Shown piece after piece: positions 26,966 to 48,026 of a stretch of 64,000 nucleotides of DNA. The notes under the pieces are model-generated. The model had not been told where the DNA came from, did no database searches, and saw nothing but the letters and a program-made list of their open reading frames with translations. The position numbers were made by a program, and so were the translations under genes. Each line of letters opens with the position of its first letter. Position 1 is the stretch's first letter. The DNA comes from Longimicrobiales bacterium (lineage in GTDB: Bacteria > Gemmatimonadota > Gemmatimonadetes > Longimicrobiales > Gaopeijiaceae), in NCBI GenBank assembly GCA_965203485.1, contig OZ241892.1, forward strand, positions 2,624,001-2,688,000, written 5' to 3'.

Positions 26966-27562
26966 ATCCAGGCAGTTCGGTCTCTTCACGCCACACGTGG
27001 TGGCTCTTCCGGTGTCTCGAATCCGCAGCGAAGCAGGCCGCGCTCGAGTGGCTCAGCCAATCTGGCTGGACCACCGCGCACGGCCGCGACCTCGGCGGCG
27101 GACGGCCCCGCCGACCGGGCGCGCGAGCGGTCAGACTACTCGGACGTCACTCTCGCTTTCCGCCTCGGCAAGACCCTCGTGCGCATCGACCTCGACCTCG
27201 CCGACACCGCGCTCGACGACGCCCTCCGCAAGCTGACGCGCCCCGTCGGCTCCACCCTCGATGCCCGCAACCGCTCCTTCCACCGGATGTTGGTGGACGG
27301 CGTCCCCGTCGAGTACCGGGCACCCGCCAGGCGCATCCGCGGCCACCACGCCCGAGTCCTCGACTTCGACCAGCCCGAAGCCAACGACTGGCTGGCCGTC
27401 AACCAGCTCACCGTCGCCGATGACAAGCGCACGCGCCGCCCGGACGTCGTGCTGTTCGTCAACGAGCTCCCGCTGGGCGTTGTGGAAACTCAAGGACCCG
27501 AGCAACCCGGAGTGTCTCGGACGGCGTGGAGGCCCGGTTCGGCATGCTCACCGGCGACTAGG
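26966..27562 (+). pseudogene. hsdR: Decayed 5' copy of hsdR
   Basis: Colinear nucleotide paralog of 39364-39915 plus a piece matching about 40021-40049, with indels; [26 protein letters not shown]. Confidence 0.85.
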
Positions 27563-28589: not shown

Positions 28590-31500
28590 CTACGCCCCTC
28601 GCTCCGTGGGTCGGCTCACATCCAGCACTACGACCTTGATCTTATGCCTCTGGTCGGGCGCGAGCTCTCCTCGGAGGCGCTCTCGCAACGCTTCGGGCGT
28701 CTTCGGACGACGACCAGAGGGGGGCACGGTCTTGGTGTACCGCACGCCGAACCAGAGCACGACATAGACGCCGTGCCCGCCCGACTCCGGGGCACGGGCG
28801 TACTGTTCGATCAGCTGGTCGTTGATCGCGCTCCACAGTTGCGGGTGGGTGTTCTTCTTGATCTCCACTGGGACGGCGTGGCCGCCGCAGGATACCCGAA
28901 TGTCCGCCCGCTTGCCTTCGGCGTACTGGGCTTCGGGCTGGGCGTCTACGTTGACGCCGACCCCGGTGGGGAGGCGCCCCCGCACGGCCGACAGGAGTGC
29001 GTCTCGGCAAGTATCTTCGGGCCTCGGTTCCTTTTTCTTCGGGCGACCGTGGCTGTCTACGTTCCAGTACTGTCGCCAGTCGTTGGTGTTGCCGTCTCGA
29101 ATCTCCGTGGCAAGCCGCTCCAGACGGGCGACGAGCAAAGCAAGCAGGTCGGTGGGGTTTGCGGGCTGGCCGTCTTGCAACACTTTCTGCACCTCGTCCG
29201 CAGTGGGAATCTGGTGCAAGTGGTCGCGACGGAGCAGGACCTGCCGGTCGCGCGCTTCGAATATGACGTGCCGCCACATGGCCAACTCGGGCGCAACAGC
29301 AAGCACTTCCAGCGCATCGGCGGCCTTCGCGCCCGGCTTGTTCGCCAGCCGGTCCAGCCACGCCGAGAGCAAGCGCCGAGCCTTGTCGGCCGCTTCGACG
29401 GCATGCGTCATGAAATGCGCCTTCATTTCGTTGTCGTCTGGAGGACGCCAAGGGTTGACCCGCGCGCCGACGCCCCGGATCGCCGTCGCCAAGTGCTCCG
29501 TGCTCCACTCCATCAAGAACGACGGCAGGTCGTCGGGAACGACGAAGCTCATCAAGTGTTGTGCGCGAACGGGCGATCCCTCGCCGATGAACTCCATCGC
29601 CGTTGCCAAGTAGCGACCGGGCGACGCCAACATCCCGGCGCCCAGCCACAGCGCTTGCTGGGCTACGTCCATGCCCGAGCGCGCGAGCTTCGTCGCCGTC
29701 CGTGACGCAAGGTCGTCGGGCATGTACCGCACCGATGCCCACAGCAGGTGACGAAGCGCCAAGATCTGCGGTCGAGTGCACCGAACGGGAAAGGCGCGAA
29801 GCAACGACGGTGCCGCTAGTTGCGCCAGCTTCCGATACTTGGGGTTCCCGGCTACGGAAGCCAAGTGCTCTTCGCAGGGCGTCTTGCGCCTGATCTTGGA
29901 CATGTGGACGGCCACTAGGCCTTCCGCAACCAGTTCAGTATGGGACTTGACGAGCTCGTCGTACCAATCGGGGACGTGTGCTTGGTGGTAACACCCCGAG
30001 TGCGGGTCTCGCACCATGGGGCGCGGGGTCAGGTAGTAGAAGCCCGCCGCTCTCTTGATTCCGTTTGCCGTCAACTTCCGGTGGCCGCCGCACCCGGTCC
30101 GGTCCCCCTCGGCCAACCCGGCCAAGACGGGCAAGGCGAAATGCGAACGCTTTCCCTCGCTATCCAGCCGAACGATCTCGTCGAGACCTGGAAGGTCGTC
30201 GCGCTCCAGCGCCCGCTTGAATCCGGAGAGCGTTGCGGCCACCAAGCGTTCGTCGGAGTCCAGCAACTTGCGCAACGAGGCCACGGGGTCTGTCGACATG
30301 TTGCCGGAGTCGAACCCGAAGTACGTTCTGGCAAGGCAATCCAGAAGGACCGGCTTGCATGAGCTCGCCGCCAAGTCCCTCGCCCGCTCACGCACATGCG
30401 CGACGAACTGTTGTTCTTCCCTGCGCCGACGCTCTCGTGCAGCAGTTGCCTTCTTGTCCCACTCTGTCAACGCCGTCCCGGCTTGGTCGCGCAGCGAGTC
30501 CGGGGGCTCTGCGAAGCTGGCCAGATGGTCACGCAATTCCGGCATGTCTTGAAGTCTGGCGCCTGCGCATGCGATCCAACGAGCGAAGTGCGGCTTGGCG
30601 CGCCGAAGAGAAACCGCCCATTCCAGCAGGAGTCGCGCCGCTGGGACGTGGGAGCTTGCCAACCCGATGGCATGATCGAGACACCACGCGGCAAAGCCGG
30701 GAGGGGGGGAGCCGTCGAAGAGTTTGCGACGGTACCGCCAAGCGTCGATGTCCAGGTCTTCCTTTTGAGCGTTTTTCCTTAGAAATTCCAGGAGACAAGC
30801 TCTGCCGACAGCCGGATGTGTTGCAAACCATGATCGAAGGCGTCGGAGTTCGGGCCCGTCCAGTCTCCCGATGTCCGTCGGCTCAGTCCCCGCCGCGAAT
30901 TCGATCCACTTCGACAGTCGCGACACAGGAGTCGTCTCTCCGTGCACGTTCAGGGCGCGCACCAACAGGCGATGCACAAGATCGTTGAGCTGACCCTCGC
31001 GCAGTACAGCAAGCAACCGGGACCTGCTGGCGAGCAAACCATCCAAGAGGACGGGCAGATCGGCGTCGCGGGTACTCTGCTCGACTCTCTTGAACCAGAA
31101 CAGTACGTCAAGACCGATCAGCCTGTGGTTGGCCGTCTTCGGCACGTAGCTCCAAATCCGTTCGGGCGGAACACGATCAGGATACCACGCAGTCAGCAAT
31201 TTGCCCCGGAGTTCGTTGTCGGGATCGTGAACCCGACCATCTTTGGTCTCTGCAAGCAATTCGTCGACGAGTTCGTTGCCCTTGCCGCTTCTCGCCACGG
31301 CATGGAGCGCGGCCGCCAAGCCAGCATGTCTGACGCGCGGCCACCAAGTAGGGTCCCGTACCAGACGCAACAGCTCACGGATGAACGACCGAGGCGTCGT
31401 CGGGAAACGCTCGGGCGATGCCCACAGCGCAGAAGCAGCATGTGGAATGCCACGCAACAGCAGATCTACGACCGCCTGCCTAGCGTCGCCGCGGTCGTCG

Positions 31501-32810
31501 TCTGCGACGTGGGCGCGAAGCATCTCGATCGTGCTCGGCCGGATTATGGAACCAAGCGCAGGCGCCGACCACTCCTGCCGCAACAGCCGCCGATCCTTCC
31601 CCTCCAGCGCGCGGATCAAGCCGGCGATATCCTCGTCGCCGAACCCGCCGGCATCGCCATGGGCCAGGACGCCGATCGGATCCGCGCTCGCCAAAGCGTG
31701 CCTGGCTTCCCCGCAAAGGGCGGCCAGCCACGCGGCCAAGCCCCGAAGCCCAGACACGATGCCGCCGTCGTGGCCGGTCAGAAGGGCCAGAACCCGTTCG
31801 CTCGGCAGCCCCGCTCCCTCGCCGCTGGTTCTTCCCTCGATGACGTTGCGGAGGAACCGAGCCCCGACGTACTCCGCGATATGCACGTGGACGGGCACGA
31901 AGCGTCCAGGCGACTGCGCAGTGAAGAGCTTGGTGGCGAGCACCCGACGCAGCGCTTCCCCGTCTCCGTCCGCCACTTCGTCAGGGGCTAGGTCGTCGTT
32001 GCGCTTCTCCACGCCGCTTCTGCAAATCGCCTGTGCGTCCGTAAGCAAAAAGAACGCCGCCAGTCGGCCCGCCGCATCGAGCAGGCGCTCGGCGCCCAAC
32101 TCGCTTGCGTCGCGATCCCATGCCGCGTCCAGGTGCTCGGGATTCTCCTCCTGCACGAGTCGGAGGCAGGCCTTCTCGAACACTTCGGTTCGGCTCGTCG
32201 GCCAGCTCCCGTTCGCCACAATGCCCGCCAACAGCTCGAGAGACTGGGGGCTGTCCAGCAGTCCGCCGAGACCCCGGTCCACGGCCTGCCGAACAAAGTC
32301 GGCTACGTCCATTTTCTGGGCCGCAGGCAACCCAGCCAGAACGTGGCGAACGTCGTCGCCGCCGAGGGGGTCGAGTTGCAGAAGCCGAAGCCGTCCGCCG
32401 TCGAGTAGGGACTGGAGCGCGTTCGTGTCCGTGAGTCCCCAGTCGGCCGGCCGGCACGAGAGCCTGAACCGGGGACGCCCCAGCTTCCTCAACCGGGCGA
32501 CGATCTTGTCCAGTGGAGAACGGGGGTCGCCGCCGCCCGCTCGCACTTCGTCCAGGCCGTCGATGAAGAGCACGGCGTTTTTGGCGTCCAGCGCGCCGTC
32601 CAGGTCGCCCCGGACGAACTCGCGGGCGGTCACGTATCTTGCCCCGCCCGCCTGGGCTTCGCGCTTGAAGGCGGTCGTCTTGCCTGCCCCGGGGTCGCCC
32701 AGTAGCACGTAGGCCCATTCGCACCGGAAGGCCGAGATCGGGCGAGAGGGTTGGACGGATGAACCGTCTTGGTCGTCGTACTCGGTCGCGGTTCGGTCTA
32801 CGTACGTCAT
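28590..32810 (-). CDS. NACHT/STAND NTPase with long helical sensor region and C-terminal PD-(D/E)xK nuclease (about 1400 aa)
   Basis: VLLGDPGAGKTT, LFIDGLDE, LSCR; C-terminal EDTCRD..PEAQYAEGKRADIRV..VPVEIKK..QLIEQY..GVYVVLWFG. ATG overlaps the upstream stop. Confidence 0.85.
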   Translation of the reverse strand: MTYVDRTATEYDDQDGSSVQPSRPISAFRCEWAYVLLGDPGAGKTTAFKREAQAGGARYVTAREFVRGDLDGALDAKNAVLFIDGLDEVRAGGGDPRSPLDKIVARLRKLGRPRFRLSCRPADWGLTDTNALQSLLDGGRLRLLQLDPLGGDDVRHVLAGLPAAQKMDVADFVRQAVDRGLGGLLDSPQSLELLAGIVANGSWPTSRTEVFEKACLRLVQEENPEHLDAAWDRDASELGAERLLDAAGRLAAFFLLTDAQAICRSGVEKRNDDLAPDEVADGDGEALRRVLATKLFTAQSPGRFVPVHVHIAEYVGARFLRNVIEGRTSGEGAGLPSERVLALLTGHDGGIVSGLRGLAAWLAALCGEARHALASADPIGVLAHGDAGGFGDEDIAGLIRALEGKDRRLLRQEWSAPALGSIIRPSTIEMLRAHVADDDRGDARQAVVDLLLRGIPHAASALWASPERFPTTPRSFIRELLRLVRDPTWWPRVRHAGLAAALHAVARSGKGNELVDELLAETKDGRVHDPDNELRGKLLTAWYPDRVPPERIWSYVPKTANHRLIGLDVLFWFKRVEQSTRDADLPVLLDGLLASRSRLLAVLREGQLNDLVHRLLVRALNVHGETTPVSRLSKWIEFAAGTEPTDIGRLDGPELRRLRSWFATHPAVGRACLLEFLRKNAQKEDLDIDAWRYRRKLFDGSPPPGFAAWCLDHAIGLASSHVPAARLLLEWAVSLRRAKPHFARWIACAGARLQDMPELRDHLASFAEPPDSLRDQAGTALTEWDKKATAARERRRREEQQFVAHVRERARDLAASSCKPVLLDCLARTYFGFDSGNMSTDPVASLRKLLDSDERLVAATLSGFKRALERDDLPGLDEIVRLDSEGKRSHFALPVLAGLAEGDRTGCGGHRKLTANGIKRAAGFYYLTPRPMVRDPHSGCYHQAHVPDWYDELVKSHTELVAEGLVAVHMSKIRRKTPCEEHLASVAGNPKYRKLAQLAAPSLLRAFPVRCTRPQILALRHLLWASVRYMPDDLASRTATKLARSGMDVAQQALWLGAGMLASPGRYLATAMEFIGEGSPVRAQHLMSFVVPDDLPSFLMEWSTEHLATAIRGVGARVNPWRPPDDNEMKAHFMTHAVEAADKARRLLSAWLDRLANKPGAKAADALEVLAVAPELAMWRHVIFEARDRQVLLRRDHLHQIPTADEVQKVLQDGQPANPTDLLALLVARLERLATEIRDGNTNDWRQYWNVDSHGRPKKKEPRPEDTCRDALLSAVRGRLPTGVGVNVDAQPEAQYAEGKRADIRVSCGGHAVPVEIKKNTHPQLWSAINDQLIEQYARAPESGGHGVYVVLWFGVRYTKTVPPSGRRPKTPEALRERLRGELAPDQRHKIKVVVLDVSRPTERGA

Positions 32811-34314: not shown

Positions 34315-35931
34315 ATGAGCGTGCCGGCCAAGGTCCCATCCTCCGCCGCCACGACCGGCTACGAGGCCGAGCTGTGGAAGATGGCGGACGCGCTTCGCGG
34401 CTCCATGGACGCCGCCGAGTACAAGCACGTCGTCCTGGGGCTGATCTTCCTCAAGTACGTCTCCGACGCCTTCGAGGAAATGCACGCGAAGCTCGGCGAG
34501 GACGAGCACGCCGACCCGGAGGACCCGGACGAGTACCTGGCCGAGAGCATCTTCTGGGTGCCGCCCGAGGCCCGCTGGGGGCGGCTCAAGGCCGCCGCCA
34601 AGCAACCCGGAATCGGCCGGCTCGTGGACGACTCGATGACCGCCGTCGAGCGCGACAACCCCATGCTGAAGGACGTCCTGCCGAAGGACTACGCCCGCCA
34701 GTCCCTCGACCAGACGCGCCTGGGCCAGCTCATCGACATGGTGAGCAACATCAAGGTCGGCGACGAGGCCGCCCGCTCGAAGGACGTGCTCGGCAGGGTC
34801 TACGAGTATTTCCTGTCGCGCTTCGCGGACGCCGAAGGCAAGCGGGGCGGCGAGTTCTACACCCCCCGTTGCGTCGTCAAGCTGCTGGTCGAGATGATCG
34901 AACCGTTCAAGGGGCGCGTCTACGACCCGTGCTGCGGCTCGTCGGGCATGTTCGTGCAGTCGCTGGAGTTCATCCGGGCGCACCGAAAGCCCAACGGCGG
35001 CGGAGACGCGGCGCCCGGCGGCGACGGCCTGCCGTCGACTGCCCCGGACCCCATCTCCGTCTACGGCCAAGAGTCCAACTACACGACCTGGCGCCTCGCC
35101 AAGATGAACCTCGCCATCCGCGGAATCGAAGGCCAGATCGCCCACGGAGACACCTTCCACAACGACCGCCACCCCGCCCTCAAGGCCGACTACATCCTCG
35201 CCAACCCGCCCTTCAACGTGAGCGACTGGGGCGCGGAGCGGCTGAAGGACGACCAGCGCTGGCGCTTCGGCACGCCGCCCAAGGGCAACGCCAACTTTGC
35301 CTGGGTCCAGCACATGGTGCACCACCTGTCGCCCACCGGAGTCGCCGGCTTCGTGCTGGCCAACGGCTCGATGAGCTCCCGCCAAAAGGCCGAGGCCGCC
35401 GTCCGCCAAGGGCTGGTGGACGCCGAGATGCTGGACTGCATGGTCGCCCTGCCCACGCAACTCTTCTACTCGACCCAGATACCCGCCTGCCTGTGGTTCT
35501 TGGCCCGCGACCGAAGCAACGGCCCGTACCGCGACCGCCGAGGCCAAGTCCTCTTCGTCGACGCCCGCCAGCTGGGGCGCATGGTGGATCGCACCCACCG
35601 CGAGCTCACCGACGAGGACGTGTCCCGAATCGCCGGCACCTATCACGCTTGGCGCAGCCCCGAGGCCGCCGACGCCTACCAGGACGTCCCCGGCTTCTGC
35701 AAGAGCGCCCCGCTGGAAGAGATCCGCCGCTACGACTACGTGCTCACGCCCGGCCGCTACGTCGGCGTCGAGCCCCAGGAAGAAGACGACGAACCCTTCG
35801 AGGACAAGATGCGACGTCTCGCGGCCGAGTGGCGCGAGCAGGTGGCGGAGGCGCGGCGGCTGGACGCGAAGATCGAAGCGAACTTGAGGTCCCTCGGCTT
35901 TCCGCCTCCGGAAGACCGCCCATCGGAATGA
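34315..35931 (+). CDS. hsdM: Type I R-M methyltransferase subunit M
   Basis: [43 protein letters not shown]. Confidence 0.96.
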
Positions 35932-36344
35932 TCGACTACGGCAAGTTCCGCCTCTCGCTGGAGCGGCTCCAAGAGCAGTACGAAAACTACAGCCAGCCCG
36001 ACCTTTCGTTGCCCGAGGTCACGCGCGAGGCCGTCGCCGAGTCGGTCGTCCACCGCTTCGAGACGTGCTACGACTCCCTGTGGAAGGCCCTCAAGCGGTA
36101 CTTGGCGGAAGAGCTGGGCGTCGCCGACCTTCCCAACAGCCCCAAGCCGATCTTCCGACTTGCCTCCGAGAACCACCTGTTTGACAGCCCTCTGGAGCGT
36201 TGGCTAGGATATGCCGAACACCGCGTGGGCACGGCCCACGACTACAGCCTGTCGAAGGCCGAGGACTGCTTGGCGGCGACGGGCGACTTCATCGTGGACG
36301 CCACCGCGCTTTACGAGACGATGACCGGGGAACGATGGAAATGA
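35928..36344 (+). CDS. HEPN toxin / nucleotidyltransferase substrate-binding protein (HI0074 family)
   Basis: C-terminal 138 aa of track ORF 34374..36344: [42 protein letters not shown] overlaps at both ends. Confidence 0.88.
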
Positions 36345-37876
36345 AGGGCGAGATCGATCTGACGGAGGAGCAGCGGCAACTGGTGGTAGGGTTGATCAAA
36401 CGGCACCTGCCCGACACGGATGTGTGGGCTTATGGGTCGAGGGTGACGTGGACTGCGCGGCCCGGGTCTGACTTGGACTTGGTTGTGTTTTCCGATACTG
36501 ACCACAGTCGTGAGGTGTCCGACTTTCGGGAGGCATTGGACGACAGCAACTTGCCGTTTCGCGTAGATGTGTCGGTTTGGGGCGAATTGCCGGAGTCGTT
36601 TCGACAAGAAATTGACCAGGCACACTTTCCTGTTGTCGAGGACACGTCCCACGTGATGCATCTGACTTTCGGCGAGTGTGCGACATTGGTACGTGACACC
36701 GTTGATCCCGAGGATATGCCTAGCGATATGCCATACGTCGGTCTCGGCCATATCCCCCGCAACGGTCTTGCCATAATCAATCCTGGCGTAGCAAGTGACG
36801 TGACGAGTGCGAAGACTCGTTTCCGACGCGGTGATATATTGTTTGGACGACTACGGCCATATTTCCGTAAGGTGGCACGTGCTCAGTACGATGGCATATG
36901 TTCGACGGACATTTGGGTAGTGCGCGCTCGTTCAGGTATAGAACAAGAATACTTATTCTACCAGATGGCTCACCGCCAATTTGTTGATTATGCTTCCTCT
37001 GCCTCCGAGGGCACAAGAATGCCGAGAGCAAAATGGGATCACGTCGCGCAATATAATATTGCTCTTCCATGCATAAGCATCCAACAGCGTATCGCTCATC
37101 TTCTTCGTACCATGGACGAGAAGATCAATCTGATTCAGAGAAAAATGGGAACTCTTGATTCGATACTCCGCACTGTTTTTTATGGTTGGTTCGTGACCTA
37201 TGATCCGGTTTATGCCAAGGCAGAGGGCCGAGATGCAAAACTACCGGCGACGATTGCCGATGCTTTTGTCGATTCCACAACTACTTCGTCACTAGGATCC
37301 ATACCATCTGGATGGACAGTGAAATCGTTAGGTGACCTTCTCACACTCGCCTACGGCAGAGCACTCCCTTCTCGGAACAGACGGCACAATGGAAGCATAC
37401 CAGTTTATGGTTCAAATGGTCAAATCGGATGGCATGACACGGCACTTGTCGACGGACCCGGCATCGTAGTTGGGCGAAAAGGAACACCAGGTACGGTCAA
37501 TTGGATTTCCACCGATTTCTTTCCCATAGATACAGCATATTATGTTGTACCAAGACATCATTGCATTTCTTTGTTTTTTTTGTTTTTTGCATTACAAGAT
37601 CAACGTCTTTCCTTGCTCGTCGCCGATTCCGCTGTACCCGGATTGAATCGTGATATTGCGTATGCTCAACAACAAGTTTTTCCCACTGCTCGTGTTCTTA
37701 GGCTTTTCGACGAATGTGTGAAGCCATTCTTTGCCACCATTGGACACTTGACAGACGAACGCCAACTCATCATTTCGGTACGCAATCTTCTGCTGGATCA
37801 GTTTATGAGTCGTGGGAATGCGAATCATCAATCAAGCCATAACACCGGATCGCCCGTGAGTCCAGAACCTGTGTGA
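36341..37876 (+). CDS. hsdS: MNT nucleotidyltransferase - HsdS fusion (type I specificity subunit with two TRDs)
   Basis: N-terminal VWAYGSRVTWTARPGSDLDLVV..LPFRVDV, in frame with GDILFGRLRPY..LP..QQRIA..MDEKI..IPSGW..IVVGRKG. Confidence 0.9.
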   Translation: MKGEIDLTEEQRQLVVGLIKRHLPDTDVWAYGSRVTWTARPGSDLDLVVFSDTDHSREVSDFREALDDSNLPFRVDVSVWGELPESFRQEIDQAHFPVVEDTSHVMHLTFGECATLVRDTVDPEDMPSDMPYVGLGHIPRNGLAIINPGVASDVTSAKTRFRRGDILFGRLRPYFRKVARAQYDGICSTDIWVVRARSGIEQEYLFYQMAHRQFVDYASSASEGTRMPRAKWDHVAQYNIALPCISIQQRIAHLLRTMDEKINLIQRKMGTLDSILRTVFYGWFVTYDPVYAKAEGRDAKLPATIADAFVDSTTTSSLGSIPSGWTVKSLGDLLTLAYGRALPSRNRRHNGSIPVYGSNGQIGWHDTALVDGPGIVVGRKGTPGTVNWISTDFFPIDTAYYVVPRHHCISLFFLFFALQDQRLSLLVADSAVPGLNRDIAYAQQQVFPTARVLRLFDECVKPFFATIGHLTDERQLIISVRNLLLDQFMSRGNANHQSSHNTGSPVSPEPV

Positions 37877-38148: not shown

Positions 38149-39129
38149 CTAGTCGCCACCCGCCTTGGCGATCAGCTCCTCGCCCGTCTCGCACTCCGCC
38201 AACAGCCGCCCCAACCGCGCCAGCCGAGAGCGGTCCGTCACGCCGGCAAGCATGTCGGCCAGCCGCTCCGCCGCATCCGCGCCGAACTTCCACTTCGCCG
38301 TCTCCACGTACGCCCGAGCCTCCCCGAGCGTCTGGGCCTCCTGCGCCACTTTCGAGATGTGGTTCGCGTACACCTTGGTTGCCTCCTTCAGCGTGTCCAA
38401 CTGTCCGATTGTCTCCTCCGACCCCTTCCAATCTATCATCTGAACGCGAATCCACGCGACGTACGCCTCCCGCAACGCCGACGTGACCAAGCGCTCCTCC
38501 AGAACCGCCAACGCTTGCGCGACCCGTTCTGGGTCCCGCTCGAAGCGTAGCGCCAAGCCTGCACGCAGGCGGCCCGCCTTGCGCAGATCGAGAGACGCGC
38601 CCTTCGCCGCTTCCGCCTCCTCGTCCAGCAGCACCACTCGCTGGCCGTACACGAACGGCCTCAGTTCTTCGGGCGCGAGCTTCTCTAGCTCGCACGCCTT
38701 GCTCAGCGGCCCCCTCCACCTGCCCTCGAAGCTCTTGACCACCACAAACAACACCGCGCTCGCTTCCACGTCGGCCCCGGCACGCCGGCCTTCAGCCAAG
38801 CTCTGGTAGCACAGCGCCGTCTCGAGCAACGCGCGGGTCGCCATCCTCTTGTCCGCCTTCGACTGGAACTCGAACAGGAGCACGAGCCAGAGCGGGCGGT
38901 CCCGGAACCGCACCCTCCACGCCATGTCCACCAGCCGGACCGTCTCGCGCTCCGCGTCCACGAACTCCGTCGGCGCCGGCTCGAGGGTTCTGAAGTCGAG
39001 CGCGTCCACCCAGTCGCCGCCCACGGACTCGCCGACGATCTCGACGACGACTTCCTCCACAACCTCCGCGAACGAGTAGAACTGCTTGTACACTCGGTCC
39101 TTCTCGCCGTGCTTCGGCTGGTCGGGCAT
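38149..39129 (-). CDS. Rpn-family recombination-promoting nuclease / PD-(D/E)xK putative transposase
   Basis: DRVYKQFY..LDFRTLE..EFVD..DMAWRV..LLFEFQS..DKRMATR; typical KFG..DRSRLARLG..LAECETGEEL C-terminus. Inserted antisense between hsdS and hsdR. Confidence 0.8.
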   Translation of the reverse strand: MPDQPKHGEKDRVYKQFYSFAEVVEEVVVEIVGESVGGDWVDALDFRTLEPAPTEFVDAERETVRLVDMAWRVRFRDRPLWLVLLFEFQSKADKRMATRALLETALCYQSLAEGRRAGADVEASAVLFVVVKSFEGRWRGPLSKACELEKLAPEELRPFVYGQRVVLLDEEAEAAKGASLDLRKAGRLRAGLALRFERDPERVAQALAVLEERLVTSALREAYVAWIRVQMIDWKGSEETIGQLDTLKEATKVYANHISKVAQEAQTLGEARAYVETAKWKFGADAAERLADMLAGVTDRSRLARLGRLLAECETGEELIAKAGGD

Positions 39130-39409: not shown

Positions 39410-42400
39410 GTGTCTCGCATCCTCGAATCCGCAGTTGAGCAGGCCGCGCTCGAGTGGCTCAGCCAATCCGGCTGGACGACCGCGCACGGCCCCGACCTCG
39501 GCGCGGACAGCCCCGCCGGCCGGGCGTCCGAGCGGTCAGCCTACTCCGACGTCACCCTCGCCTCCCGCCTCCGCAAGGCCCTCTCGCGCCTCAATCCCGA
39601 TCTCCCCGGCACCACTCTCGACGACGCCCTCCGCAAGCTGACCCGCCCCGCCGGCTCCACCCTCGACGCCCGCAACCGCTCCTTCCACCGAATGCTGGTG
39701 GACGGCGTCCCCGTCGAGTACCGGACGCCCGACGGAAGCATCCGCGGCGCCAACCCCCGAGTCCTCGACTTCGACCAGACCGACGCCAACGACTGGCTGG
39801 CCGTCAACCAGTTCACCGTCGTCGAGGGCAAGCGCACGCGCCGCCTGGACGTCGTGCTGTTCGTCAACGGGCTCCCGCTGGGCGTGGTGGAGCTCAAGGA
39901 CCCGAGCAACCCGGACGCCACCATCCACACCGCATGGCGGCAGCTTCAGACCTACAAGGCGGAGTTGCCCACGCTCTTCGCCATGAACGAGATCATGGGC
40001 GTCTCGGACGGCGTGGATGCCCGGTTCGGCACGCTCACCGGCGGCTGGGAGTGGTTCAAGCCGTGGCGCACCATCGACGGCGACGAGAGGGCGGGAGCGT
40101 CGGCGTCCCAGCTGCAGGTCGCCGTCGAGGGGCTGTGCGCGCCGCGACGGTTGCTCGACATGATCCGCGACTTCATCGTCTTCGAGGACGACGGCGGAGG
40201 CGAGCTGGCCAAGAAGATGGCGGGCTACCACCAGTACCACGCGGTGCGGGTGGCCGTGGGCCAGACCCTGCGGGCGACCCGGATGCAGGACGAGAAGGAA
40301 GCCGCTCCGGTTCGGCCCTTCCGGCCGGTCGTCGTCCCGCCGGACCCGCGAACCCGGTACGTCACCACTGCGCCGCTGGTCCCGCTCAAGGCCGCGGCTG
40401 GCGCGTTCGGCGATCCGCGGCGCTTCCCGGCGGACGACTTCGAGTGGACCAGGATTCGCCCGAAACGCCCGCTGCGGCGCGGGATGTTCGTCGCCCAGGT
40501 CGTCGGCCCATCGATGGAACCGGCGATACCCGACGGCGCCTGGTGCCTCTTCTCCGCGCCGGTCGAAGGCACGCGCCAGGGCAAGACCGTGCTCGTGGAG
40601 CTTCGCGACGAGATCGATCCCGAGACCGGCGAGCGCTACACCGTCAAGCGGTACGAGAGCGAGAAGGCCGCCCAGAACGAAGACGGCGACCGCTGGCGCC
40701 ACGCCCGCGTCACCCTCAAGCCCCGCAATCCGCGCTTCCAGCCCATCGTGCTCGCGCCCCAGGACGAAGGCCAAGTACACGTCGTCGCCGAACTGGTGGA
40801 GGTGCTGGACCGCCACGCTCTCGACACCGGTCCGAAGCCCGCGCTACCGGGCGACCGCCGCGTCGGCGTGGTGTGGCACACGCAGGGCTCCGGCAAGAGC
40901 CTCACGATGGCGTTCTACGCGGGGCGCATCGTTCGCGAGCCGGCCATGGCGAACCCCACGCTGGTGGTCCTCACCGACCGCAACGACCTGGACGAGCAAC
41001 TCTTCGCCACGTTCTCCCGTTGCCGGGACCTGTTGCGCCAGCCGCCCGAGCAAGCCGAGGACCGGGCCGACTTGCGCCGGCGGCTGGACCGCGAAGCGGG
41101 CGGCGTCGTCTTCACCACGATCCAGAAGTTCTTCCCGGATCAGAAGGGCGATCGGCATCCGTTGCTGTCGGCGCGGCGCAATATCGTGGTCGTCGCCGAC
41201 GAGGCCCACCGCAGCCAGTACGACTTCGTCGACGGCTTCGCCGCTCACATGCGCGACGCCCTGCCCGCCGCCTCGTTCATCGGCTTCACCGGCACGCCCA
41301 TCGAGCACACGGACCGCAACACGCGCAGCGTCTTCGGCGACCACATCAGCATCTACGACATCCAGCGCGCGGTGGACGACGGCGCCACGGTGCCGATCCA
41401 CTACGAGGGCCGGCTGGCCAAGCTCGCGCTGGACGAAGACGAGCGGCCCCGGATCGATTCGCAGTTCGAGGAAGCCACGGAGGGCGAGGAGGTCGCCCGC
41501 AAAGAAGGACTGAAGACGCGCTGGGCGCAACTGGAGGCGATAGTCGGGGCCGACAAGCGCCTGGAGTTGGTGGCCGGCGACTTGGTGCGCCACTACGAGC
41601 AGCGGTGCGACGCGCTGGAAGGCAAGGCGATGATCGTGTGCATGAGCCGCCGCATCTGCGTGGCCCTGCACGACAAGATCGTGTCGAAGCGCTCCGGCTG
41701 GCACGGCGAAGAAGACGAGCAGGGCGCGATCAAGGTCGTCATGACCGGCTCGGCCTCCGATCCGCCGGAGTGGCAACGCCACATCCGCAGCAAGGGACAA
41801 AGGGAGGCGCTCGCCAAGCGGTTCCGAGACCCGGACGACCCGTTTCGAATCGTGATCGTGCGCGACATGTGGCTGACCGGCTTCGACGCGCCGGCGCTGC
41901 ACACCATGTACGTGGACAAGCCCATGCGCGGCCACGGCTTGATGCAGGCCATCGCCCGCGTGAACCGTGTCTTCCGCGACAAGCCGGGCGGGCTGGTCGT
42001 GGACTATCTGGGACTGGCGAACGACCTGAAGGAGGCTCTGACCACCTACACGAACAGCGGCGGCAGGGGCAGGCCCACCGTCGACCAGGACCAAGCCGTG
42101 CAGGAGATGCGCAAGCGCTTCGAGATATGCCGCGATCTCTTCCACGGCTTCGACCGGTCGCGCTGGACCGCCGGCGCCCCCGCCGAGCGCTTGGCGCTGT
42201 TGCCCGCCGCGCAAGAGCACGTCCTGGCCCAGGAGAACGGCAAGGACCGGTTGCTCGAAGCCGTGGACGCCCTGTCCAAGGCGTTCGCGCTCGCCGTCCC
42301 CCACGACGAAGCCCTCGGCATCCGAGACGACGTGGGCTTCTTCCAGACCGTGCGCAACTCCCTGGCCAAGCGGGCGCCCGGCGCCGCCCAGCCCGCCGAG

Positions 42401-43063
42401 GAACTCGACCACGCCGTGCGGCAGATCATCGCCGGAGCCGTCGTGCCCAAGGGCGTGATCGACATCTTCGCGGCCGCCGGACTGCCGAAGCCCGACATCT
42501 CCATCCTGTCCGACGAGTTCCTGGCCGAAGTGCGGGACCTGCCGCAACGCAACCTGGCCGTCGACCTGCTGCGCAAGCTTCTGGACGGCGAAGTGCGCGC
42601 CCGCCGCCGCAAGAATGTGGTGCAGAGCCGCTCCTTCGCCGAGATGTTGGAGCGCACGCTGGCCCGCTACAGGAACCGAGCCGTCGAGACCGCCCAGGTG
42701 ATCGAGGAGCTGATCGGCTTGGCGAAGGAGATGCGCGAGGCCGACCGCCGCGGCGAAGACCTTGGCCTGTCCGAGGACGAGCTCGCGTTCTACGACGCGC
42801 TGGAGACCAACGACAGCGCCGTCAAAGTGCTCGGCGACGAGACATTGCGCACAATCGCTCGCGAGCTGGTCGCGACCGTGCGCAACAACACCACGATCGA
42901 CTGGACGATCCGCGACAACATCCGCGCCCGCCTCCGCGTCTACGTCAAAAAGGTCCTCCGCAAGCACGGCTACCCGCCCGACAAGGAGGAGGCGGCAACC
43001 AAGACGGTCTTGCAACAGGCCGAGGTGTTCTCGGCGGACTGGCTGGCCTCGGCGCCACGGTGA
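39410..43063 (+). CDS. hsdR: Type I R-M restriction subunit R with an internal S24 peptidase-like insertion
   Basis: [17 protein letters not shown] nuclease, [43 protein letters not shown]. Extra about 185 aa at 40282-40848. Confidence 0.95.
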
Positions 43064-43357
43064 CCAGGAGTTGCGTGCGCATGGAGGTCGCCGTCCGCCG
43101 AACGGGCCGAGGTGCTGGACATCGGCGCAAACGGCAAGTTGCTGGCTGCCCAGAGGCACTTTTCCCGTGGCTATTTGCGATTCGGTCAGGGAGTCGTTTA
43201 TCTTCCGGGTACACGGGAACCGTGGGGGCCTCAGATCGTCCATTTTCTTCATCCGCCCGGTCAGGGTACCGCTGGCCCCCGGGCAGGCGGGTCCGAGCCA
43301 GGCCGCGCACCGACCAGCAACCGGCGGTACAGCCCGAGGGGCCATCAGAACGGATCG

Positions 43358-43864
43358 ATGAGCATGAAGCTAAAGAAGCTACTGTCCCAGTTTCGCCTAG
43401 AGGGTGTGCGTCTCAACGTCAAGTTCGCCACCTTCGACGTCGACCTGACAGACCACGACAAGAACGCGGCGTGGGATCTGTACGTAGAGATGTTGACCAG
43501 GATCGCCACCCAGCCGCTCCCCACCATCCATGGCAGTGAGGATCAAGCTTTGGCGAGCGTCTACTCTCTGTTTCCTACTACCCGCGAAATCCTCCGACGT
43601 CGAGGTCCCAGCACTATTGAATTCTCCAAAATCGCGATCCCTGTACTCAATCAAGTTGTACGTCCATTTACGGCCAAATGGCATCGCGAATCACTGGTGG
43701 GCGCATTTGACGACCCCGCCCGCTGTATCGAATTTCGTCAAGAACTCGCGTCACTGCAGGTTCATCTAAGGAACTACAATCGCCTGTTGGCGAGCATTGC
43801 CGATGTAGAAGACCTTACTGACCCAGAACCTCATGACCAAACAATGGGAGAAAACCATGGCTGA
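43358..43864 (+). CDS. Hypothetical helical protein, first gene of the TIR operon
   Basis: [44 protein letters not shown]; overlaps the TIR start by 8 nt. Confidence 0.75.
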
Positions 43865-44336
43865 CAAACTGCACAATGTCTTCATTAGTCACAAGCATGA
43901 AGACGACGCTGGCCTACAGTCGCTCAAGGCCCTGCTTGAACGGCACGGCATGAAATACAGGGATTATTCCGTGACATCTGACAAGCCTAATCGCGCCGTT
44001 AGTGAAGATTACATAAAATCCAGCATCCTTGCGCCTAGAATCCAACGCGCTAGCTGTTTAGTCGTATACGTGTCGGCAGCGACCAAGAACAGTGACTGGG
44101 TAGATTGGGAAATCGAATATGCCCACGGAAAGGGGAAGCGAATAGTCGGCGTTTGGCAACGCGGAGAACTGGGTTGTGATGTACCTCGTGCTTTGACTCT
44201 ATACGCTGACGCAGTGGTGGGATGGAATGGCGAAAGCATAGTTGATGCCATTACTGGCAAGTCCAACACGTGGTACAACCAGAATGGGACCTCATGGGAG
44301 TACCGGTCAGACATCCAACGACACACTTGCGGTTAG
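43857..44336 (+). CDS. TIR domain protein (ThsB/DUF1863-like)
   Basis: VFISHKHED, LVVYVS..TKNSDWVDWEIEYA (catalytic Glu), KRIVGV. Confidence 0.88.
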   Translation: MADKLHNVFISHKHEDDAGLQSLKALLERHGMKYRDYSVTSDKPNRAVSEDYIKSSILAPRIQRASCLVVYVSAATKNSDWVDWEIEYAHGKGKRIVGVWQRGELGCDVPRALTLYADAVVGWNGESIVDAITGKSNTWYNQNGTSWEYRSDIQRHTCG

Positions 44337-44834
44337 GAGGACAGTTCATGTTTCTCTATTCGTACATCGTCGCCAGGGACTATGGCTTCGCCCCTAATCC
44401 CTTCTTTGGCTGCTGTACCCTTGCTACGTGCAAGCCCGTAATTCGCCGATGTGCTAGCGTCGGCGATTGGGTCGTTGGCACTGGGCCCAAGAAGAAGCAA
44501 AGGAACGGTTACCTGGTTTTCGCTATGCGGATTGATGACGCAATGTCGTACAACAAGTATTGGTCTGATCCCCGCTTTGCGGCCAAAAAGCCGAACATGC
44601 GATCTAGCGTTCGGAATGCATATGGCGACAATATCTATCGCACAGACGATGCAGGAGGCTGGATACAGCAAGATTCACACCATAGTATGCCACATGGCAA
44701 ATCTTGTGGAGTTGCCCCGGTATGGTGGACGGGCAAGGATCTTGGGTTCAGATGGTGCAATGTGAAACATGACTTTAGGAAGGACGGAGGCGCAAGGGCG
44801 CCGAACGGTCTCGTGTCGAGGGGGTCGGTGCACT

Positions 44835-45683
44835 TTACGCGACCGCACGCTTGCGCTCGAAGCCGGCGGGGGATTCGTAGCCGAGCGCCGAGTGTCGGCG
44901 CCGCGAGTTGTAGAAGCCTTCGATGAAGGCGAAGACGGCGCGCCGGGCTTCGGCCGGACTTGTGAACTGGCAACGGTCCAGCAACTCGCATTCCAACGTG
45001 GCGAAGAAGCTCTCGCACATCGCGTTGTCGTAGGCGTCGCCCACCGAGCCCGTCGAGCGACGCACGCCGGCCTTCCTGCACCGCTCGCCGAACGCCCAGG
45101 ACGTGTACTGCGACCCCTGGTCCGAGTGATGGATCACGGTCTCTGGACTGCGGTTCTCGACGGCCATGGCGAGCGCGCGCTCGACGAGTTCGCCGCGCAG
45201 GTGCGTCTCCATGGCCCAGCCGACGACGCGGCGGCTCCAGGCGTCGACGACGACCGCCAGGTAGAGCCATCCGGCCCCGGCCGGCACGTACGTGATGTCG
45301 GCGACCCAGAGCTGGTCGGGGCCTTCGGCGCTGAAGTCGCGCTCGACCAAGTCCGGAGCCGGGCGCGCGTGGGCGTCGCGCACCGTCAGCGCCACCTTGC
45401 GGCGCCTGCGGCTCGCGCCTTCGATGCCCTCCTCGCGCATGAGGCGGGCGACGCGCTTCGGACCGACGCGCTCGCCCCAGGCCGCGAGATCGGCGTGGAT
45501 GCGCGGTCGCCCGTACGTCCGCCGGCTCGCTTCCCAGCTGCGGCGCACCAAGACGCGCAACGCGTCGTCGCGCAACGCGCTCGCCGATCGGGGACGCTTC
45601 AGCCATGCATAGAAGCCGCTCGGGGAGAGACCGAGGACGCGGCACATCGCGCGCACGGGAAACACGGCCCGGTGCGCTTTCAC
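44835..45683 (-). CDS. IS3 transposase OrfB (DDE integrase core)
   Basis: YGRPRI, WVADITY, HHSDQGSQY, DNAMCESFFATLECE. Confidence 0.93.
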   Translation of the reverse strand: MKAHRAVFPVRAMCRVLGLSPSGFYAWLKRPRSASALRDDALRVLVRRSWEASRRTYGRPRIHADLAAWGERVGPKRVARLMREEGIEGASRRRRKVALTVRDAHARPAPDLVERDFSAEGPDQLWVADITYVPAGAGWLYLAVVVDAWSRRVVGWAMETHLRGELVERALAMAVENRSPETVIHHSDQGSQYTSWAFGERCRKAGVRRSTGSVGDAYDNAMCESFFATLECELLDRCQFTSPAEARRAVFAFIEGFYNSRRRHSALGYESPAGFERKRAVA

Positions 45684-45994
45684 GAACTCGAACCCTCTCC
45701 GGGAATCGAGCCGCTCTCCCGAGCGAACCAGGCCGCGGCTTTTTTTAGAATGTCGCGCTCGAGGCGCAACTGCTTGTTCTCCCGCTTCAGGCGGCGCAAC
45801 TCGTCCCGCTCGCGCGTCGTCGTCCCGTCGTCGCGACGGCCCTCGTCGAGATCGGCCTGCTCGACCCAGTTGCGGATCGTCGGCGCCGACGGCTCGAACT
45901 CACGCGCCAGCGCCTCCGGCGACCGGCCCGAACGCGCCAGATCCACCATTCGCCGCCGGTACTCCAGCGGGTACTGCTTGCGTTTCTTCGGCAT
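45680..45994 (-). CDS. IS3 transposase OrfA (HTH)
   Basis: YPLEYRRRMV..TIRNWV..ELRRLKREN..ERDILKKAAAWF. Confidence 0.92.
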   Translation of the reverse strand: MPKKRKQYPLEYRRRMVDLARSGRSPEALAREFEPSAPTIRNWVEQADLDEGRRDDGTTTRERDELRRLKRENKQLRLERDILKKAAAWFARESGSIPGEGSSS

Positions 45995-46287
45995 CGTGGA
46001 CTCCTCCTCGTCCCGAAAGATTGAACGTGTCCACCATGCCGGGGCAACTCCACTTGTGACGCCAACATCCACAACGACACCAAGACTGACAGAGTGTTGA
46101 TTAGTTGGTACTTCACCTACTGGGGTGGAACCGGGCCCGAAATACCGTATGCAAGCCGGACGGACATTTGCTCTCGCGGTCGATCCCATAAGAAGATCCT
46201 TCTCCGAGATATACAAACAACCGTCGCTTGGCTTAAGGATTTGAAGCGAGGCTATTGTGGTGAACCCCTGGAATGGGCAGCTATGTG

Positions 46288-47391
46288 ATGTTGGCTGCGA
46301 TGTCTTTTTCACTGGAAACTCTGTCGCTGTACGCAAGAACGACCGCCGAAACCGATCGCCTTCCTCCAAGCGACATCCAACCGGTTCTTTTTGGTCTGTA
46401 TGGAGAGGTTGGCGGCATCATGACGTTGATCAAGAAATGCCACCGTGAGGAAGTTGATATGGACAGAGCGATTCTACGAGAGGAGCTTGGCGACGTACTG
46501 TGGTACTTCGTTACGCTATGCCGTCGATTGGGCGTTTCCCTCACTGATGTTGTAGTCAGTACCTACAGCAAACCTGATGTGAAACCGATCCAAGAAAACA
46601 TGATGGGGATTGACCAGCTTCGTCCGCTATCAAGAACGGTGGAAAGACTAGGGGTTAGGGCGGCAATGCTGCTGTCCGTTACGAACTCGGATGCGTCAGT
46701 TGCGGAGGGGTTGCGTGGATTTTGGCAGGACTTTTGGCAGTGCCTTGCCGCCGCTCGGGTGGATATTGGAATAGTAATTGCCGAAAACATTGCAAAAATT
46801 CGTGGCAGATTCACGATTCCGACGTCTACCGAACTCCCTACTTTCGACGACACATATCCCGAGGGTGAGAAATTGCCGATGTCGTTCCGAATTGAATTTA
46901 TTGAAACCCACGAAGGGGCCATTACCCTTCGATGGAACGGGAACATTCTCGGGGACGAACTCGACGATAGTATAATGCGGTCCGACGATTATCGCTTTCA
47001 CGATGTGTTTCATCTTGCGAATGCCGCTGTTCTTCATTGGTCTCCGACATTTCGGAAACTAACGGGACGAAAGCGCAGAAGTAATCCTTCTGTTGATCGA
47101 GGACAAGATGGCGGTCGAGCAATCGCAATTGAGGAAGGCCTGACAGCATGGATGTTTGCCTATGCAAAGGAGCGTGCGTTTCTCGAGGGAAGCAGACGTC
47201 TTCCATTTGACCTACTGAAGGGAGTCAGTCGATTTGTAACCGGCTATGAGGTGCATGCATGTCCGCTGGGCCTGTGGGAACAGGGAATTCTAGAGGGCTT
47301 CAAGGCGTTTCGTGCTTTGGCGAACAACCGAGGTGGCGTGGTTGTAGGAGAGCGAGCTGATCGCATGATCGGTTATGAGTGTCGGTCATGA
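46288..47391 (+). CDS. MazG-like nucleotide pyrophosphohydrolase with MazG-C domain
   Basis: GLYGEVG..EELGDVLWY; C-terminal DDYRFHDVFH..WSP..RKRRS..DGGRAIAIEEG. TGATG coupling to Nmad2. Confidence 0.85.
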   Translation: MLAAMSFSLETLSLYARTTAETDRLPPSDIQPVLFGLYGEVGGIMTLIKKCHREEVDMDRAILREELGDVLWYFVTLCRRLGVSLTDVVVSTYSKPDVKPIQENMMGIDQLRPLSRTVERLGVRAAMLLSVTNSDASVAEGLRGFWQDFWQCLAAARVDIGIVIAENIAKIRGRFTIPTSTELPTFDDTYPEGEKLPMSFRIEFIETHEGAITLRWNGNILGDELDDSIMRSDDYRFHDVFHLANAAVLHWSPTFRKLTGRKRRSNPSVDRGQDGGRAIAIEEGLTAWMFAYAKERAFLEGSRRLPFDLLKGVSRFVTGYEVHACPLGLWEQGILEGFKAFRALANNRGGVVVGERADRMIGYECRS

Positions 47392-48026
47392 CAGCCGACG
47401 CGTTTGTCGACATGCTCACCGACCAAAGGTTTCGCAATGCATTTGATCCGTACTCTCAACGATGCACTGCCCACGACTTGGCTGACGCCCCGGAAATGAG
47501 ATGCCGGATGGTGCTGTCAATGATTGGTAACGCCGTCGAGCACGGAACCGATTCGTTGTGGGTCGGGAGAGACCTCGGATATCGTGGCGGGCGCCGTACG
47601 GGCCTTGCGATGACTGACGACTTTAGCCTTCAGGTCCACGCACGCCGATGGAGCATAGTCGGCGAGCGGCCGACCAGAGGAACGATGATCAAAGAGCGCA
47701 CAGCAACGGCGGTTTGGAACCTGCTCGGGAAGATCGAAATTAGCGTGTTTTTGTGGAATGTGTTTCCATTTCATCCGCATATACACGACACTCCGTTTTC
47801 GAATCGACCACATAATAGAACGGAGAGACAGGTCGGCCGGAAAATACTTGGTGAGCTGATTCGTATGTTGAGGCCTAGGCGGATAGTTGCTGTCGGTGGA
47901 CTGGCGGCGAGCGTGATTGGGGCTATGACAAATGGCGAACAATGTGTTCGTGTACGTCACCCGAGCTATGGCGGTCAAAGAGAGTTTGTCGAGGGAATGC
48001 TGGGTGTCTACGGGAATCGAGGGTAA
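47388..48026 (+). CDS. Uracil-DNA glycosylase superfamily protein
   Basis: VGRDLGYRGGRRTGLAMTD, ERTATAVW, WNVFPFHP..NR, VRHPSYGG. ATGA coupling to MazG. Confidence 0.85.
   Translation: MTADAFVDMLTDQRFRNAFDPYSQRCTAHDLADAPEMRCRMVLSMIGNAVEHGTDSLWVGRDLGYRGGRRTGLAMTDDFSLQVHARRWSIVGERPTRGTMIKERTATAVWNLLGKIEISVFLWNVFPFHPHIHDTPFSNRPHNRTERQVGRKILGELIRMLRPRRIVAVGGLAASVIGAMTNGEQCVRVRHPSYGGQREFVEGMLGVYGNRG

Follow-up and report, generated by a model that had tools for sequence, protein, structure and literature searches.

A Type I restriction locus with an S24 domain inside HsdR

The window analysed here is a stretch of 64,000 nucleotides from a Longimicrobiales bacterium (Gemmatimonadota; assembly GCA_965203485.1, contig OZ241892.1, positions 2,624,001 to 2,688,000 of the forward strand), and the element under study is the hsdR gene of its Type I restriction locus, which encodes a restriction subunit with an internal peptidase domain of the S24 family. 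The hsdR open reading frame runs from a GTG at 39410 to 43063 and translates over 1217 codons with no internal stops. Its product scores 566.7 bits against TIGR00348 (cut-off 284.55) and contains the Pfam domains HSDR_N, SWI2_SNF2, T1R_D3 and T1RH-like_C, with PF11867 assigning it to the HindI-like subfamily. The features of the gene on which the analysis rests are as follows.

39410..43063, forward strand: hsdR of the HindI-like subfamily, encoding a Type I restriction subunit of 1217 aa that contains the S24 domain
39422..40051, forward strand: PD-(D/E)xK nuclease domain, aa 5-214 (PF04313; D147, E161 and K163 intact)
40226..40291, forward strand: Q-motif helix, aa 273-294, with which motor domain 1 begins (helix 273-294 in the model)
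40280..40849, forward strand: expanded loop, aa 291-480, made up of linker, S24 domain and linker (190 aa in frame)
40355..40807, forward strand: LexA/UmuD/cI-type S24 domain including the cleavage-site region, aa 316-466 (PF00717; model pLDDT 85.7)
40388..40402, forward strand: K-A-A-A330/G331, bond predicted to be cut, which would expose a latent Ala-Ala C-terminus
40511..40513, forward strand: Ser368, predicted nucleophile (from conservation)
40646..40648, forward strand: Lys413, predicted general base (from conservation)
40877..40900, forward strand: Walker A (HTQGSGKS), followed by the DEAH box at 41198-41209

The sequence hallmarks of a Type I HsdR are present: the PD-(D/E)xK nuclease, Walker A, the DEAH box and linked hsdM and hsdS genes. 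The nuclease residues D147, E161 and K163 are kept in all 106 relatives that cover them, and an AlphaFold model of residues 1-900 (mean pLDDT 72.8, 86 sequences) had the HsdR of EcoR124I as its best solved-structure match (E 4e-23). By these sequence features HsdR is otherwise intact and stands within a complete M-S-R locus, and its intact motifs, together with dN/dS values below 1, point indirectly to a function in translocation and cleavage.

The insert lies within the first motor domain

The loop that holds the insert is flanked by 18 residues that begin the Q-motif helix region (aa 273-290, nt 40226-40279) and by 17 residues that include Walker A (aa 481-497, nt 40850-40900). The helix at aa 273-294 corresponds to the Q motif, an element with a role in ATP binding. 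In the model, low-confidence linkers at aa 294-302 and 473-483 bracket a beta-rich insert, and the Walker A strand comes next. An earlier reading of the DNA letters (the sequence-only reading) had described an in-frame S24 domain of about 185 aa between the nuclease and the motor. The in-frame S24 domain stood, but its placement did not: in the insert-free relative P0227 the PF18766 ATPase profile begins at the Q-motif helix (aa 273), and the insert is therefore inside motor domain 1, after that helix. The range then proposed, 40282-40848, is out of frame and returns no Pfam match, the in-frame stretch being 40280-40849.

From Q motif to Walker A, 99 of 100 close relatives without the insert have 48-59 aa (the other has 78 aa), and the distance rises to 194-248 aa in those 70 proteins with the insert in which both marks were found. 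The net insertion is thus about 164 aa within a loop stretch of 190 aa, and the native loop is a fairly long and variable one, where the sequence-only reading had a short variable loop. Of the 120 proteins closest in their motor region, 100 lack the insert, 16 carry the module in the loop (some as fragments) and four could not be judged. The same insertion is found in 75 other protein clusters (76 with the query).

Both junctions of the insert are spanned with zero differences by single contigs from runs X1 and X4, which are two samples of one study, X1 possibly being the source. These contigs and the 75 further clusters led us to reject an assembly artefact, and a frameshifted neighbour was considered and rejected or ranked low. 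The GC content at third codon positions (GC3) of the insert is 0.87, against 0.94 and 0.92 in its flanks, and gives no sign of very recent arrival.

Identity of the inserted domain

The stretch 40280-40849 matched PF00717 (Peptidase_S24) at 30.5 bits, above the curated cut-off of 23.3, as the sequence-only reading had predicted, and hhalign aligned the domain with the LexA of the same genome (probability 93.4, E 2.4e-7). Other sequence comparisons were weaker, with no S24 match in a phmmer search of the single insert against the PDB and LexA reached only at E 0.013 in a profile search with the module. This weak link at the sequence level was settled by structure searches. A model of the isolated domain (pLDDT 85.7) matched LexA, lambda cI and UmuD in Foldseek at E values from 6e-6 to 3e-3, and in a search of 48,161 chains structural Z scores of 12.4, 12.2, 11.8 and 11.0 were obtained to LexA, cI and UmuD over 99-128 residues. 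The best match was the Thermotoga maritima LexA (Z 12.4, 128 residues, rmsd 3.4). Ten chains reached Z 8 or more, all of them LexA, cI, UmuD or 186-repressor, and signal peptidases scored 5-6.6. The LexA match starts at LexA residue 75 and hence covers the cleavage-site region. The modelled domain thus appears to adopt the fold of the LexA C-terminal domain.

The motif positions given in the sequence-only reading were all borne out: PLKAAAG occupies aa 325-331, with the codons of A330-G331 at nt 40397-40402, Ser368 begins at 40511 and Lys413 at 40646. The predicted scissile bond lies 38 residues upstream of Ser368, the corresponding distance from A84 to S119 in LexA being 35. Across three sequence sets the serine is kept in 208/208, 82/82 and 147/148 proteins and the lysine in 211/211, 81/81 and 146/148, and A330, G331, S368 and K413 are invariant in the 121 top matches, a set biased to close relatives. 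When aligned to HsdR homologues, which also delimited the insert, the Ala-Gly, Ser and Lys proved near-invariant in about 75 insert-bearing relatives, in agreement with their proposed identity as an S24 scissile bond and dyad. Internal forms present Ala-Ala at P2-P1 in 73 of 73 cases and glycine at P1' in 72 of 73. Among the 148 more distant representatives, obtained by clustering at 50%, 138 cover the cleavage site, with P1 being Ala in 123, Cys in 12, and Ser, Gly and Met in one each, and P1' being Gly in 132. Variation at P1 is therefore nearly confined to small residues, the cysteine corresponding to C24-G25 of UmuD.

Simple counting on six internal-form, GC-rich genes gave dN/dS values of 0.10-0.36 for the domain in all 15 pairs, whereas the nuclease gave 0.16-0.47 and the motor 0.10-0.26. 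By this measure the S24 domain is under purifying selection. The alignments and models together indicate that the insert, in a flexible loop of motor domain 1, is an S24 domain complete with its dyad and cleavage site and kept by selection. The HsdR Pfam domains do not include the N-terminal DNA-binding domain of LexA-type SOS repressors, a nuclease standing upstream instead, and for this reason HsdR was not classed as an SOS repressor; it is a Type I restriction enzyme variant with an S24 member inside. Some members of the module family are automatically labelled 'SOS-response transcriptional repressor LexA' in databases.

Distribution of the module and its three placements in HsdR

Of 2649 candidate proteins 669-2130 aa long, 1808 contain the module, as do at least 496 of the 598 pattern matches listed from genome contigs. 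A search of 1.84 billion representatives returned 499 clusters at E 1e-30 or better; at E 0.001 there were 2490, among which ordinary S24 proteins are to be expected. Within the phylum of the window, 12 of 401 genomes carry the module, two of them as weak matches. Nearly all the named loci among the matches listed are metagenome-assembled genomes (MAGs), from Acidobacteriota, Gemmatimonadota, Myxococcota, Chloroflexi, Planctomycetota, Pseudomonadota and others, and the closest named locus among them is L019, a Longimicrobiales MAG (82% identity). No instance was found among 50,697 phage records, and the one found among 72,556 plasmid records (39.7%) is on a 1.8-Mb Halomonas replicon.

A Pfam scan was performed on 58 chosen proteins, of which 56 came from or near 150 representatives (picked by length or position) and two were taken from the 2649 candidate proteins. 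The recognisable hosts are Type ISP and IIG enzymes, HsdR, HsdS, McrC/LlaJI-like, Type III-like, Schlafen, HNH, PLD and DUF3427 proteins and DEAD-MZB helicases, the last matching Druantia DruE. All of these are restriction or defence proteins, and many of the 58 show no further Pfam family. The module is C-terminal in 102 of the 148 distant representatives and stands alone or in fragments in 33. Five loci of the same phylum (L009, L010, L011, L012 and L017) contain open frames of about 2000 aa with the module at the end; P0385 and P0406, similar in size, match Druantia DruE. P0075, P0078, P0333, P0334, P0352, L039 and L078 have about 180-200 residues without a Pfam family beyond the module.

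In HsdR the module occupies three placements. In placement (a) it forms a C-terminal tail, as seen in 39 HindI-like proteins and, as the commonest class among the 80 genome loci, in a second HsdR subfamily. Placement (b) is the loop between Q-motif helix and Walker A, found in 75 clusters and the query and in five of the 80 genome loci, with a linker of 9-37 aa on the C-terminal side of the module. One of these five, L049, has hsdM and hsdS and another, L034, has hsdS, two are short contigs, and L019 has neither gene within the available stretch. In placement (c) the module interrupts the nuclease domain of EcoAI/EcoEI-like HsdRs, where it stands between the E-x-x-A-R and D-Y-V-L...E-A-K motifs (P0427, P0391 and L099 among others; 22 of 78 metagenome loci), and hsdM lies immediately downstream in 18 of 21 such loci checked. 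In L019 a second, partial copy of the junction from S24 to Walker A (985-1414) precedes the intact gene by about 6 kb, and in L099 a sigma-54-type activator gene (57-1493), recognised by eye, lies directly upstream of the EcoAI-like hsdR.

In all three placements the predicted new C-terminus falls on the piece that carries all or part of the nuclease. This terminus would be Ala-Ala in 73/73 internal forms, 39/39 C-terminal HindI-like forms, 121/138 distant members and 10 of the 13 EcoAI-like forms that could be read by cleavage-site pattern, nine others being unreadable. The internal state requires four changes on a tree of the module and 17 on a tree of the motor, both built with FastTree on subsampled IIG/ISP and representative rows, with no topology test and with gain and loss not separable. 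These counts suggest one or a few insertion events followed by recombination, or repeated loss.

RecA contact positions and the SOS and proteolysis genes of the host

According to excerpts of PMC9926225, the LexA pocket that receives the RecA L2 loop includes F111, L113 and V153, with Y52 and F94 as UmuD equivalents. The same excerpts describe LexA and UmuD as binding the RecA filament as dimers and cI as a monomer, and the LexA C-terminal domain as dimerising, with RecA contacts separate from the dyad. Using these RecA-LexA and RecA-UmuD structures, we mapped contact residues by their offset from the dyad. The F111 position corresponds to F360 in HsdR and is Phe in 73/73 internal forms, and the V153 position corresponds to Y410 and is Tyr or Phe in 76/76. 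An acidic D-x-x-D-P-E loop precedes the lysine (Asp in 146/148), with its acidic residues shifted into a longer loop, the hairpin before the lysine being extended by a conserved 7-8 residues or so with respect to LexA. Binding of RecA by the domain is plausible, with two of the three pocket positions kept and the third mostly Ala. A complex prediction with two host RecA chains and the module gave a score of 0.00, which has no bearing either way.

The host genome encodes RecA, a canonical LexA with intact motifs, and ClpX. A tmRNA was detected with Rfam, although not with ARAGORN, and the tag read from its frame is ANTDLALAA; the tags of relatives (four and one weaker call) also end in LAA. A recA gene is present in all five other internal-form genomes, an uninformative result given that recA is near-universal. 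A second LexA-like protein of the host, L003 (G000:C1:1575306-1575596, reverse strand), has apparently lost the Ala-Gly site and the dyad, as judged by eye. Visual inspection also revealed a candidate SOS box, TTCG-N7-TTCG, repeated upstream of the host lexA (L001) and recA (L004) genes on G000:C1. The window contains three instances, against 4.4 expected, none of them near the hsd genes, and there is therefore no support for transcriptional SOS control of hsd.

A possible RecA-triggered off switch for restriction

ClpX recognises a class of C-terminal degrons that have free, small nonpolar C-terminal residues and end in Ala-Ala. The end predicted for the cleaved HsdR, L-K-A-A-A, fits the sequence definition of this ssrA-like class, and the host tag ends in L-A-A. 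Shedding of an inhibitory domain fails as a function shared by the three placements because the domain stays attached in (b) and (c), and release of the nuclease fails because it is not produced by (a) and (c). The predicted outcome common to all is a new C-terminus, usually Ala-Ala, on a piece with all or part of the nuclease, which, in a host with RecA, LexA, ClpX and an LAA tag, favours RecA-triggered cleavage followed by degradation. We consequently propose, with a probability of about 0.5, that the insert is a working LexA-type autopeptidase that serves as a RecA-triggered off switch for restriction during DNA damage. Upon damage, RecA filaments on single-stranded DNA would bind the domain and the A330-G331 bond would be cut, yielding a 330-aa piece, with the nuclease and the Q-motif helix, that ends in -L-K-A-A-A-COOH, and an 887-aa piece with the S24 domain and the remaining motor. 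The new Ala-Ala end would act as a ClpX signal, as in LexA, and the nuclease and Q helix would be degraded, so that both cutting and translocation would cease. This would serve restriction alleviation by protecting the chromosome at times when repair makes unmethylated sites. Judged step by step, self-cleavage is very probable, a RecA trigger is probable if the domain cleaves itself, a net effect of switching off is likely if both hold, and participation of ClpXP is somewhat favoured if the effect is indeed to switch off.

Known systems provide several elements of this mechanism. LexA-like proteins carry ClpXP degrons beside the cut, as stated in excerpts of PMC5742171. Excerpts of PMC4231737 report that EcoKI is alleviated by ClpXP, that a degron was sought and not found, and that a nuclease-dead EcoKI mutant is still toxic without ClpX; a cut that removes an element of the motor as well would therefore be useful. 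The sequence-only reading had the cleavage cutting the nuclease off the translocase, which is inexact: the cut lies after the Q-motif helix of the motor, so that the pieces may stay associated, and cleavage in the other two placements would not part nuclease from motor.

Several observations weigh against this proposal. The position of LexA L113 is Ala in 70/73 internal forms and that of E152 is Arg in 76/76, the host's own LexA likewise lacking Glu at the latter position (by eye). The Ala-Ala end may be inherited from LexA and is absent in 17 of 138 distant members and three of 13 readable EcoAI-like forms. Tethering at both ends could hinder entry of the domain into the RecA groove, the nicked pieces may stay active, and phages and conjugative plasmids could exploit an off switch triggered by single-stranded DNA. 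Docking on RecA would also be independent of position. EcoKI alleviation is independent of LexA cleavage according to excerpts of PMC11109961, and alleviation can therefore work without such a module. Finally, for the DruE-like, Schlafen, HNH, PLD and McrC/LlaJI-like hosts activation by damage is equally plausible.

Alternative explanations

The alternative that best survives, while still unlikely, is activation in the manner of UmuD, in which the intact domain would restrain motor or nuclease and a nick induced by RecA filaments during infection or damage would leave bound pieces that are more active or have lost self-discrimination, as in an abortive defence. The same chemistry activates UmuD (PMC9926225, excerpts), many hosts are effector-type nucleases or helicases whose tail could be released, and the pieces of HsdR could remain together with the cut following a helix that belongs to the motor domain. 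Against this, in both internal placements the domain would not be removed and would stay on the C-terminal piece, and the HsdS subunits P0410 and P0431 are also capped by the module. An enzyme awaiting RecA filaments would presumably be late against phage, and would be on when the host has unmethylated sites.

It is improbable that the main role of the domain is one other than cleavage of its host protein, such as docking on RecA, dimerising two motors or competing with LexA, with cleavage being incidental. The dimerisation of LexA and its separate RecA contacts mentioned above would allow such a role, and position independence is as compatible with docking as with a degron, but the dyad and scissile residues are near-invariant in the 148 distant representatives, in contrast with the second LexA-like protein of the host. 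Self-cleavage on another trigger, such as a phage protein or a stalled translocation state of the enzyme itself, or cutting in trans, seems quite improbable. The two deviating RecA-contact positions (Ala for Leu, Arg for Glu), the conserved extension of the hairpin and a RecA-independent LexA-like protein reported in excerpts of PMC7101444 are consistent with a different trigger, but the two aromatic pocket positions and the acidic patch are retained, and a purely trans-acting protease would not need the cis cleavage site that is kept.

Very improbable is the possibility, raised in the sequence-only reading, that the cut sets the nuclease domain loose to diffuse as a DNase without specificity. 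The N-terminal piece of the loop form would hold the whole domain with D147, E161 and K163 intact, but no nuclease would be released from C-terminal forms, the cut in EcoAI-like forms would split the nuclease domain, and the piece would end in a tmRNA-like -AA; with two of the three placements freeing no intact nuclease, the idea fits poorly. A tolerated passenger or intein-like selfish domain of no benefit to the enzyme would match the patchy spread (17 changes on the motor tree against four for the module, which only 16 of the 120 closest motors carry, some as fragments), but it is barely credible for a domain under purifying selection, with no endonuclease or other means of spreading seen in its 164 aa and with restriction or defence proteins as all its recognisable hosts.

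A broader reading of the off switch is put forward tentatively, as less probable than its operation in this HsdR: a distinct branch of LexA-type autopeptidase may have become a portable, position-independent cassette, combining a RecA sensor with a hidden degron, that many unrelated immune enzymes have gained and through which the SOS response would disarm defence directly in the protein. This reading spans three HsdR subfamilies, HsdS, Type ISP, IIG, McrC/LlaJI-like, DruE-like, Schlafen, HNH and PLD proteins.

Relation to known systems

The insert resembles the LexA C-terminal domain in its fold (Z 12.2-12.4), Ser-Lys dyad, cis Ala-Gly site, predicted Ala-Ala at the new C-terminus and aromatic residues aligned with RecA-pocket positions. 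It differs in having no helix-turn-helix, in being embedded in an enzyme with both ends tethered, in its low identity (17-24% in structural alignments), in its longer hairpin before the lysine and in having Ala in place of L113 and Arg in place of E152. UmuD and lambda cI share the fold (Z 11.0 and 11.8), and UmuD, whose Cys-Gly site recurs in 12 of 138 distant members, is a precedent for S24 cleavage controlling an enzyme post-translationally. UmuD is a separate subunit that cleaves between subunits and is thereby activated, whereas the HsdR insert lies within the enzyme chain. Ordinary Type I HsdRs (EcoR124I; HindI-like, PF11867) share with the query the nuclease, two motor domains, C-terminal region, motifs and M/S/R genes, and lack its approximately 164 extra residues, the protease domain in the loop from Q helix to Walker A. 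EcoKI alleviation parallels the proposal in that ClpXP destroys HsdR when the host chromosome is at risk, but the EcoKI HsdR, as described in excerpts of PMC4231737 and PMC11109961, is targeted during translocation with no need for LexA cleavage, while in the query a latent degron and a RecA sensor would be in the chain itself.

No published description of the fusion was found among titles and abstracts, the literature covered being such that a mention in a supplementary domain-architecture table is possible. The parts of work on Bacteroidetes LexA, a 21-system defence screen, ParA immunity, YprA helicases, Schlafens and BREX that were available do not mention the module. The components are known; their combination and its logic appear to be undescribed.

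It is only partly clear how Type I enzymes spare the chromosome of their own cell while DNA is under repair, and this HsdR offers a defined predicted cut site, trigger and degron, in contrast to EcoKI. The two internal placements separate mechanisms that a C-terminal tail cannot, with the domain not sheddable and no free nuclease common to all forms. If the off switch operates, DNA damage or incoming single-stranded DNA would give many uncultured bacteria a temporary opportunity to take up genes. The cassette, if real, would be a general, genetically encoded restriction-alleviation device exploitable by mobile DNA, and a ready-made damage-inducible degradation tag. Were cleavage to activate instead, it would constitute a new way of arming immune nucleases.

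Neighbouring genes

The remaining genes of the locus up to hsdR are the following.

34315..35931, forward strand: hsdM, cognate methyltransferase (PF02384, PF12161; PADLOC MTase_I)
35928..36344, forward strand: HI0074-like nucleotidyltransferase substrate-binding gene within the operon (PF08780 above cut-off; TIGR01987 below cut-off)
36335..37876, forward strand: hsdS, joined in frame at its N-terminus to a nucleotidyltransferase domain (PF01909 at aa 21-99; PF01420 in two stretches; PADLOC Specificity_I)
38149..39129, reverse strand: YhgA-like putative transposase gene between hsdS and hsdR (PF04754 above cut-off)

The HI0074-like gene, of the HEPN type, overlaps the end of hsdM, and its likely partner nucleotidyltransferase is the one fused to the N-terminus of HsdS. 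The two (35928-37876) are likely to form a toxin-antitoxin-like pair built into the specificity subunit. Upstream of the locus, a close paralogue of hsdR survives as a broken 5' fragment (about 27010-27555, 72-79% identity) that is frameshifted and stops before the Q helix. A 1389-aa open reading frame on the reverse strand (28590-32759) has no match in Pfam or PADLOC; by eye, a P-loop motif can be made out close to the start and a nuclease-like one towards the end. Downstream of hsdR, a cluster at 43292-48026 starts with a 190-aa protein without an assigned family and ends with two open reading frames (46273-47391 and 47379-48026) that have no PADLOC match. Between these lie a ThsB-like TIR gene (43857-44336) and an Nmad2 gene truncated by an insertion-sequence-like element (about 44835-46000).

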